Shown here in pieces: positions 32,099 to 33,536 of a stretch of DNA of 64,000 nt (the first letter of the stretch is position 1; every line of letters begins with the position of its first letter). The notes under the pieces were generated by a model, which saw nothing but the letters and a program-made list of their open reading frames with translations, searched no databases and was not told where the DNA came from. The stretch is from Armatimonadota bacterium (lineage in GTDB: Bacteria; Armatimonadota; HRBIN16): contig OY781964.1 in the NCBI GenBank assembly GCA_963677485.1, forward strand, positions 3,776,001-3,840,000, in the 5' to 3' direction. The position numbers and the translations under genes were made by a program.

Positions 32099-32219
32099 GA
32101 TGGAGTAGTGGCGCTGTTGGGCGATAATGGCCCGGCAGCGTTTCGCTGTCACTGAGTGGGATTTCAATCTCCCACCGCTGTAAAAGGAGGACGGCGGCTT
32201 AGGCCGCTGTTGAACGCAG
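32099..32219 (+). ncRNA. Candidate structured cis-regulatory 5' leader of purA
   Basis: 13-bp hairpin, GTGGGA/TCCCAC hairpin, and mutually exclusive pairings around the AAGGAGG SD. Confidence 0.45.
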
Positions 32220-33536
32220 ATGCCCACAGTTGTAGTTGTTGGTTCCCAATGGGGCGACGAAGCTAAAGGAAAACTGGTAGATTGCCTCGCGCAAGATGCC
32301 GATATGGTGGTACGATTTGGTGGCGGTAGTAACGCCGGCCATACGGTCACCTTCAATGGCCAGAAATTTGCCCTGCACCTTATTCCGTCTGGTATCTTCC
32401 GAGAACACGCGATGAACATCATCGGTGGAGGAGTGGTGGTAGATCCTGCGATTTTGTTACAAGAGATACATGGCTTGAAAAATCGCGGTATCCCTGTCAA
32501 TAACCTAAAAATCAGCCATACCGCTCATGTGGTGATGCCATACCATAAAATGCTGGATTCGCTTCAGGAGACGAGCCGCGGGAAGGGGCAGATCGGCACA
32601 ACTGGGAAGGGCATCGGCCCAGCGTATGCTGACAAAACCACCCGATGCGGTATCCGCATGTGCGATCTCATCGATCCTGTCCGGTTTGAGGCTTCTCTCC
32701 GCCGCAACCTGGCAGAGAAGGCCCCCATATTCAAATGCCTGTTTGATGCTGAGGTACCCGACATCGATGATCTGCTGTGCGAATTCGCACCATTTGCAGA
32801 AAAGCTGAAACAATACGTGGCTAACATAGAGCCATTGGTATATGAGGCTGTGAAGTCGGGTAAGAAGGTGGTTTTCGAGGGCGCTCAAGGCGCGCTTCTG
32901 GACATCGACCACGGCACCTTCCCGTTTGTCACCTCGTCACACCCGATATCGGGTGGGGCCTGTTTGGGCACTGGCATAGGACCTACGATGATTGATGGCG
33001 TGCTGGGTGTGGCCAAGGCTTATACCACGCGGGTCGGCTCTGGTGCATTTCCTACCGAGCAGGATAATGATACCGGACACTATCTGCGCGAACGCGGGCA
33101 TGAATACGGCACCACCACCGGGCGTCCTCGACGCTGCGGCTGGCTGGACACCGTGATCCTTCGTTACAGCTCCCGCATCAACGGATTGACCGGCTGGGCA
33201 GTCAGCCTTCTGGACGTTCTGAGCGGGCTGAAAGAGATCAACGTGTGCGTGGGCTACAAGATGCCTGATGGTACGATCACCCGTGACTTCCCGGCGGATA
33301 GCCAGTTGCTGGAGTCGTGTGAGCCGGTATATGAAACCCTGCCAGGCTGGGAAGAAGAGATCACAGCGGTTCGCCGTTGGGAAGAGCTTCCGCAGCAGGC
33401 ACGTAATTACGTAATGCGTCTACAGGAACTGACGGATACACCCGTGCTCGCCGTGAGTGTAGGCCCTGATCGTGCTCAGACGATGTGGCTGGATACCGAT
33501 ACGAGTGACCTGATCGGCTCAATCGCCGGTAAATAG
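32220..33536 (+). CDS. purA: Adenylosuccinate synthetase
   Basis: [34 protein letters not shown]. Confidence 0.97.

Follow-up and report, generated by a model that had tools for sequence, protein, structure and literature searches.

The 64,000-nucleotide (nt) stretch of DNA analysed here (the window) comes from the genome of an Armatimonadota bacterium (GTDB lineage Bacteria; Armatimonadota; HRBIN16; GenBank assembly GCA_963677485.1, contig OY781964.1, positions 3,776,001 to 3,840,000 of the forward strand), and our subject is the leader of its adenylosuccinate synthetase gene, purA. The purA mRNA probably carries a split (noncontiguous) ribosome binding site (RBS) of the type described for genes 25 and 38 of phage T4, with translation depending on a hairpin, hairpin 3, that lies between the Shine-Dalgarno (SD) sequence and the start codon. 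The SD, AAGGAGG, is 29 nt from the AUG and would be too distant to act directly. The GC-rich, 8-bp tetraloop hairpin that follows right after it would fold 20 nt out of the path, and the SD-anti-SD helix and the AUG would then be about 9 nt apart on the 30S subunit. By analogy with the phage genes, the ribosome would accommodate hairpin 3 and initiation would need it; translation of purA would require hairpin 3 to be formed.

The SD-hairpin-start layout of purA and its conservation

Hairpin 3 has a predicted free energy of −14.3 to −14.9 kcal/mol and pair probabilities of 0.985–0.996 in the window leader, and the spacer from SD to ATG is more stable than 99.3% of its shuffles. An earlier reading made from the sequence alone (the sequence-only reading) had proposed that ACGGCGG (32191–97) pairs with CCGCTGT (32204–10) as the ON state of a translational switch. 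These segments are able to pair, and the predicted fold in fact comprises 8 bp closed by a UUAG loop. The ON geometry itself, with 20 nt looped out and 9 nt left between SD and AUG, has a predicted probability above 0.98 and recurs in all 16 leaders of the class described below. The leader as a whole folds with z = −2.64 relative to shuffled sequences, 2/200 of which fold equally well. Hairpin 3 and the long hairpin 1 upstream of the SD contain G.U pairs, indicating that they are structures of the + strand RNA and not DNA palindromes. The ATG at 32220 is the sole possible start of purA because an in-frame TGA lies at 32211.

A canonical anti-SD (GATCACCTCCTT, four copies) is present in the genome of the window, a single contig of 5.22 Mb with 54% G+C. 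For its long open reading frames (ORFs), the spacing between GGAGG and the first start peaks at 6–7 nt and is rarely more than 13 nt. Against this peak, the purA SD is beyond functional distance, both at its 29 nt in the window and at 26–30 nt in the class. Of the 56 ORFs with GGAGG at 18–42 nt, 3 have a hairpin in a purA-like geometry, purA itself being the cleanest; shuffled spacers would give 2.0. We therefore rejected a genome-wide habit of SD-hairpin-start layouts, which are no commoner than in shuffles, and regard the arrangement as specific to purA and not a habit of the organism. In purA leaders outside the class an SD-like word was found by script in the 15 nt ending 3 nt before the start in 13/13 cases, and the same near-start SD was seen by eye in 20 further leaders. 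One leader from another family reads GGAAGGAG-UUACGCAGC-AUG, with a spacer that resembles the window's tail UGAACGCAG between hairpin 3 and the AUG, a likeness that suggests the bridging hairpin to be an insertion into an ordinary binding site.

In the genome collection used, the class comprises 18 species genomes in one family and three genera, and its purA leaders are readable in 16, purA being cut by contig ends in the other two. All 16 have the same layout: GGAG(G), a gap of 0–3 nt, a hairpin of 5–8 bp, a tail of 8–10 nt (12 in one) and ATG. The SD position is invariably GGAGG or GGAG, and its end is 26–30 nt from the ATG in 16/16. Gap plus tail amounts to 9 nt in the window and 9–14 nt in the class (9–12 nt in 15/16), and none of the 16 leaders has an SD-like word in the tail next to the ATG, so that an alternative SD at normal distance is absent from the window and the class alike. 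The bridging hairpins range from −8.1 to −18.9 kcal/mol over the 16 leaders, and of the 14 distinct spacers, 12 exceed 95% of their shuffles in stability. The stems differ by genus: ACGGCGGC/GCCGCUGU in the window's genus, (A)GCGGC/GCCG(C/U)U and variants in the second, and GCGCGGYC/GRCYGCGC in the third, where the stems of two genomes differ by U-A vs C-G and G.U vs G-C. Ten different hairpin 3 loops occur across the class. Hairpins 1 and 2, which precede the SD, keep their architecture across the class but not their sequence, which differs among the three genera.

A covariance model of SD, hairpin, tail and ATG matched 16/16 class leaders at 38–63 bits and 0/33 purA leaders of other families of the phylum; in the 5.2-Mb window genome it found nothing else (next best 13.7 bits). 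Three further metagenomic leaders of the class (L183, L190 and L212), with 71–73% identity of the purA product across its N-terminal 95 residues, share this layout, and L183 has a new stem, CGGCGG/CCGCCG. A stable predicted hairpin wholly between SD and AUG that would restore a functional distance is accordingly kept among relatives in 16/16 class leaders plus these three, with formal covariation not significant.

A related arrangement is seen in two purA leaders from distant lineages (metagenome contigs L201/L202 and L227; 57–59% N-terminal identity), where a 5-bp hairpin stands between the ATG and a GGAGG 22 nt away, leaving about 8 nt of effective spacing. In these lineages the split layout may have arisen independently at purA.

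The rest of the leader and purA leaders elsewhere in the phylum

Table 1. Features of the purA leader and gene, in window positions
Feature	Position	Strand	Detail
Sigma-70-type promoter, TTGACA-17-TAAACT with TG ahead of −10 (predicted)	32067..32095	+	10/12 matches
Hairpin 1, long 5'-terminal stem-loop (predicted)	32103..32152	+	core 32110–32122 with 32130–32142, loop GAUAAUG
Hairpin 2, GUGGGA-8 nt-UCCCAC (predicted)	32156..32175	+	arms 32156–61 and 32170–75, −9.1 kcal/mol
Upstream CCGCUGU, partner in the proposed OFF pairing; holds the third of four CGCUGU copies	32175..32181	+	
SD, AAGGAGG, 29 nt from AUG	32184..32190	+	7 nt complementary to the 16S rRNA 3' end
Hairpin 3 (bridging), ACGGCGGC-UUAG-GCCGCUGU, 8 bp, tetraloop (predicted)	32191..32210	+	32191–98 with 32203–10
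Tail of 9 nt from hairpin 3 to AUG, UGAACGCAG	32211..32219	+	without SD-like word
purA, adenylosuccinate synthetase, 438 aa	32220..33536	+	PF00709, E = 4.1e-178, profile position 1 at residue 5

The sequence-only reading had described a strong promoter with a leader of about 120 nt, a 13-bp hairpin, a GTGGGA/TCCCAC hairpin and the distant AAGGAGG, and each of these is present where it had placed them (Table 1). With transcription predicted to start at about 32102, the leader is about 118 nt long. Across the three genomes of the window's genus neither promoter hexamer changes, while the spacer between them and the DNA upstream of −35 vary, which is the pattern that a real promoter would leave. 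The core of hairpin 1 has 13 bp, including four G.U pairs, at −23.8 kcal/mol and extends to about 32103–32152 in the minimum-energy fold; the pairs of hairpin 2 have probabilities of 0.94–0.97. The tail of hairpin 1, UUUCGCUGU, was not flagged in a terminator scan, whereas a U-run follows the GC hairpin that takes its place in the other two genera of the class. For hairpin 1 the likeliest, though tentative, explanations are that it shields the 5' end or is the remnant of an attenuator.

RNAalifold run on the three genomes of the window's genus predicts hairpins 1, 2 and 3. Five one-sided changes keep pairs (four in hairpin 1 and one in hairpin 3), there are no double changes, and the single broken pair is the outer pair of hairpin 2, lost in one genome. 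The remaining substitutions fall in loops, including those of hairpins 2 and 3, or in the 9-nt tail. A relative represented in metatranscriptomes differs from the window leader at four positions: two in the hairpin 3 loop, one in the hairpin 2 loop and one in hairpin 1, where a U.G becomes U.U; the stem of hairpin 3 is kept. Contigs from the RNA libraries (runs X1, X2, X3 and X5), which derive from the relative with a few differing letters per hundred and may contain DNA, cover the leader and the start of the coding region and begin at 32110, 32085 and 32012. The last of these (32012–32276) runs from upstream of the predicted promoter into purA and could reflect read-through from upstream or DNA in the library.

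Several other candidate features of the leader were examined and rejected. There is no ATG, GTG or TTG 5–12 nt after the SD to begin a leader peptide, and ATGGAGTAG (32101–32109) sits at the predicted transcription start site. A leaderless purA start was set aside because no −10-like word precedes the ATG. A minus-strand terminator flagged at hairpin 3 is the mirror image of hairpin 3 plus SD, and no minus-strand gene reads into it. Pairing of CUCC (32169–72) with the SD would yield only 4–5 bp by eye against the 6 bp of hairpin 2. The divergent upstream ORF (30820–31866, minus strand, 348 aa) had no Pfam match at E ≤ 1e-5.

Other purA leaders of the phylum contain motifs of their own. A GGAUAGC/GCUAUCC hairpin (variant GGACAGC/GCUGUCC), with a loop of 3–7 nt, covarying flanking pairs and a U-rich run after it, occurs in the second genus of the class, at the place of hairpin 1, and in many other families of the phylum, once per genome and mostly shortly before purA, 50–200 nt upstream (L005, L007, L011–L013, L017, L021, L028, L132, L135, L136, L140–L143, L145, L146, L148 and others); it was not seen in the window's genus. 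With a 6-nt spacer, the exact pattern turned up in 18/301 genomes, one copy each, as compared to about 13 genomes matched by the reversed control. Of the 18 sites, 10 are no more than 100 nt upstream of purA, and an exact copy is absent from the window's genome. The hairpin could be an attenuator hairpin or a protein site.

A second motif occurs in another family (L019, L020, L130, L131, L133–L135, L137–L139 and L144). An invariant helix joins GCCUCCGAAUCCCCUC to GAGGGAAAAGGGAGG across a variable loop of about 8–34 nt, and after it come a GC hairpin that varies and a proximal SD, GGAGRGCGAUU. The GAAUC of its 5' strand could instead pair with a GAUUC after the SD, and L020 changes both sides. 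The GGAAAGGAGG of the class may be related to the 3' strand of this motif. Neither the GGAUAGC hairpin nor the GCCUCCGAAUCCCCUC/GAGGGAAAAGGGAGG helix has an Rfam match. In another metagenomic group of purA genes (L159, L162, L163, L168, L171, L176, L181, L182, L186, L191, L193, L194, L216, L218 and L233) a conserved leader of the form ..CUCCGGUAGGCU..GGUGUGUCCACCGGCACGCCGUC.. precedes a normal SD. In four genomes of the second genus (L011–L014) the purA leader is immediately preceded by a tRNA gene, and inspection by eye showed nothing promoter-like separating the two.

Weighing the proposed split site against other readings

Several observations weigh against a split RBS at purA. Formal covariation of hairpin 3 is not significant: in the model-made alignment 70.6% of cells are paired and three pairs show double changes, a result matched by 142/500 shuffles; partners slid by +3 columns score equally well; and both MAFFT and the model place two lineages out of register. 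The CGGC/GCCG core of the stem is nearly invariant, making a sequence-specific role possible. When 130 nt of upstream context is included, the probability of the hairpin is 0.59–0.63 in 3/15 distinct leaders and 0.20 in 1/15, and the folds predicted for several second-genus leaders pair the SD with the pyrimidine-rich tail. The effective spacing of 9–12 nt exceeds the genome mode of 6–7 nt. Most ORFs of the genome have no GGAGG within 60 nt upstream, and initiation of purA independent of an SD is conceivable. The RNA-library contig that starts at 32012 reaches upstream of the predicted promoter, and the transcription start site of purA is itself a predicted one, as are all of the structures described here.

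The sequence-only reading had taken the leader for a candidate new riboswitch, in which the SD is exposed or trapped as ACGGCGG toggles between the downstream CCGCUGU and the upstream copy, and a purine-related metabolite would bind the upstream hairpins. We consider this most unlikely. Both pairings do exist, and purA is a plausible target for purine control. The OFF pairing has the proposed 7 bp and 9-nt loop holding the SD (−10.0 kcal/mol), and it is the predicted fold of nascent transcripts, though only of those ending at 32198–32206, while the downstream arm has yet to be transcribed. The duplex between the 5' arm of hairpin 3 and the 45 nt upstream of the SD beats 97–99% of shuffled arms in all three leaders of the window's genus. 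At equilibrium, however, the OFF pairing has a probability of about 0.001: in context, hairpins 1 and 2 with OFF reach −39.8 kcal/mol, about 8 kcal/mol weaker than the −47.8 kcal/mol of hairpins 1, 2 and 3. It is also confined to the window's genus, since in 11/11 distinct leaders of the other two genera the same duplex is no better than shuffles (fractions 0.32–0.85). The three genus sequences, identical over the OFF-pairing stretch, are too alike to test it. A two-state SD switch is thus not borne out as a conserved arrangement, and pairing with the upstream CCGCUGU would be at most a transient co-transcriptional intermediate in the window's genus. Of the conservation and covariation looked for in relatives, hairpin 3 is kept in 16/16 leaders, while its covariation is not significant and the OFF pairing is genus-specific.

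Ligand sensing likewise found no support. Hairpins 1 and 2, both simple stems whose loops vary, lack a conserved junction or internal loop, and because these sequences upstream of the SD differ between genera there is no conserved ligand pocket or aptamer core across taxa. A search of the whole window against Rfam 15 at the gathering score gave 0 matches. At E ≤ 10 the region 31850–32300 gave a single chance-level match (Plasmid_R1162, 17.9 bits against a gathering score of 55). Rfam searches found nothing but tRNAs at the loci of 20 relatives and one chance-level miRNA match, at E ≤ 1, in 16 further leaders. Nothing relevant to a published purA riboswitch candidate appeared among the matches listed in a literature search.

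The leader also holds a cluster of repeats. CGCTGT occurs four times in the purA leader (32112, 32144, 32176 and 32205, spaced 32, 32 and 29 nt), the sole four-copy cluster within 120 nt on either strand of the 5.22-Mb genome; any hexamer occurs four times in 75/20000 random 120-nt windows. Two complementary segments, GGCAGCG (32134–40) and ACGGCGG (32191–97), each have one upstream and one downstream partner among these copies, forming two either/or helices of a kind that a riboswitch could use. The copies are invariant in the window's genus and absent from the other two genera, and no CGCTGT regulon was found in the window's genome. Together with the complementary segments, the cluster leaves room for a regulatory layer specific to the genus. 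There is a small chance that the bridging hairpin is the expression platform of an undescribed, purA-specific riboregulator, in which a trans-acting factor or metabolite favouring the upstream partners would turn translation off by keeping the SD at its full 29 nt from the AUG. The GGAUAGC hairpin with its U-run and the CCUCC..CCCCUC/GAGGGAAAAGGGAGG helix of other purA leaders would then be other forms of the same control.

Hairpin 3, with or without the CGCUGU repeats, might instead be an operator for repression or activation of purA translation by a protein or small RNA acting in trans; its position between SD and AUG would then serve regulation and not spacing. Operators at such a position are known for other translational repressors, and both the nearly invariant core, kept while the outer pairs vary, and the repeats at 32/32/29-nt spacing would suit such a site. 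Yet ten different loops argue against recognition of the loop, the repeats are missing from two of the three genera, and neither a regulon in the genome nor a candidate factor came to light; we regard an operator as unlikely. Similarly improbable is that the upstream AAGGAGG is not a working SD, purA being translated without one and hairpin 3 being neutral or mRNA-stabilising and inherited in the class. The scarcity of GGAGG upstream of the ORFs of this genome would agree with this, as would another family of the phylum, in whose leaders a similar purine-rich word, AAAAGGGAGG, belongs to a conserved helix while the AUG has a second, proximal SD. However, GGAG(G) and its geometry (gap 0–3 nt; tail 8–12 nt, 8–10 nt in 15) are invariant in 16/16 leaders across three genera despite diverged surroundings, and an SD-like word at the usual distance is retained in every other purA leader examined. 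Perhaps the bridging hairpin, having to be folded for translation, is a physical sensor or timer through which temperature, helicases or the order of folding (OFF, then ON) tunes purA with no ligand. The transient OFF fold predicted for nascent RNA and the modest stabilities in one genus (−8 to −10 kcal/mol) point this way, but stabilities vary widely over the class (−8 to −19 kcal/mol) and the transient OFF fold is confined to one genus, making such a device highly improbable.

Relation to known systems and significance

To our knowledge, split ribosome binding sites are textbook curiosities based on two phage T4 genes. Our literature search on split RBSs returned only T4 genes 25 and 38, plus the differently built Escherichia coli thrS and rpmE. 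In the passages of PMC3014915 and PMC7297116 that deal with the phage genes, a hairpin brings 22 nt down to 5 in gene 38 and 27 nt down to 11 in gene 25, and destabilising the hairpin lowers initiation; PMC3014915 also describes the hairpins as kept in close T-even phages only and absent in distant relatives. The purA leader resembles these genes in having an SD too far from the AUG and a stable predicted hairpin wholly between them, which would bring 29 nt down to 9, and in an arrangement kept within one class and not seen in other families. It differs in that purA is a cellular housekeeping gene with the layout across three genera and not a phage gene, in that its hairpin starts directly after the SD, and in that the purA case is known from sequence and prediction.

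For E. coli thrS and rpmE, portions of PMC3936740 and PMC7297116 describe a stable hairpin that is tolerated in the mRNA track of the ribosome and autogenous control. As proposed for purA, a stable hairpin organises the initiation region there; in those two genes, however, it lies upstream of a normally spaced SD, parting the SD from a single-stranded enhancer, whereas that of purA stands between SD and AUG. Translational riboswitches of purine metabolism (purine, ZTP, PRPP/ppGpp, xanthine and THF) share with the purA leader their position before a purine gene and alternative pairings that could affect use of the SD; the purA leader differs in having no Rfam match, no conserved aptamer core and no OFF pairing outside one genus. 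Hairpin 1 occupies the place taken in the other class genera by a GC hairpin and U-run, as in terminator attenuators, but its tail was not flagged as a terminator and no antiterminator or sensor was identified.

We therefore view purA as a probable cellular, class-conserved case of a known but rare kind of RBS, and see a small chance that another layer of regulation is present. The purA start would be scored as lacking an SD by gene callers and RBS calculators, a practical warning for their use. With hairpins of 5–8 bp and −8 to −19 kcal/mol, the class leaders would form a natural series in which to examine how structure between SD and AUG is accommodated by the 30S subunit. If the split site is real, a housekeeping gene has kept it through three genera, and bacteria themselves would use and maintain this layout.

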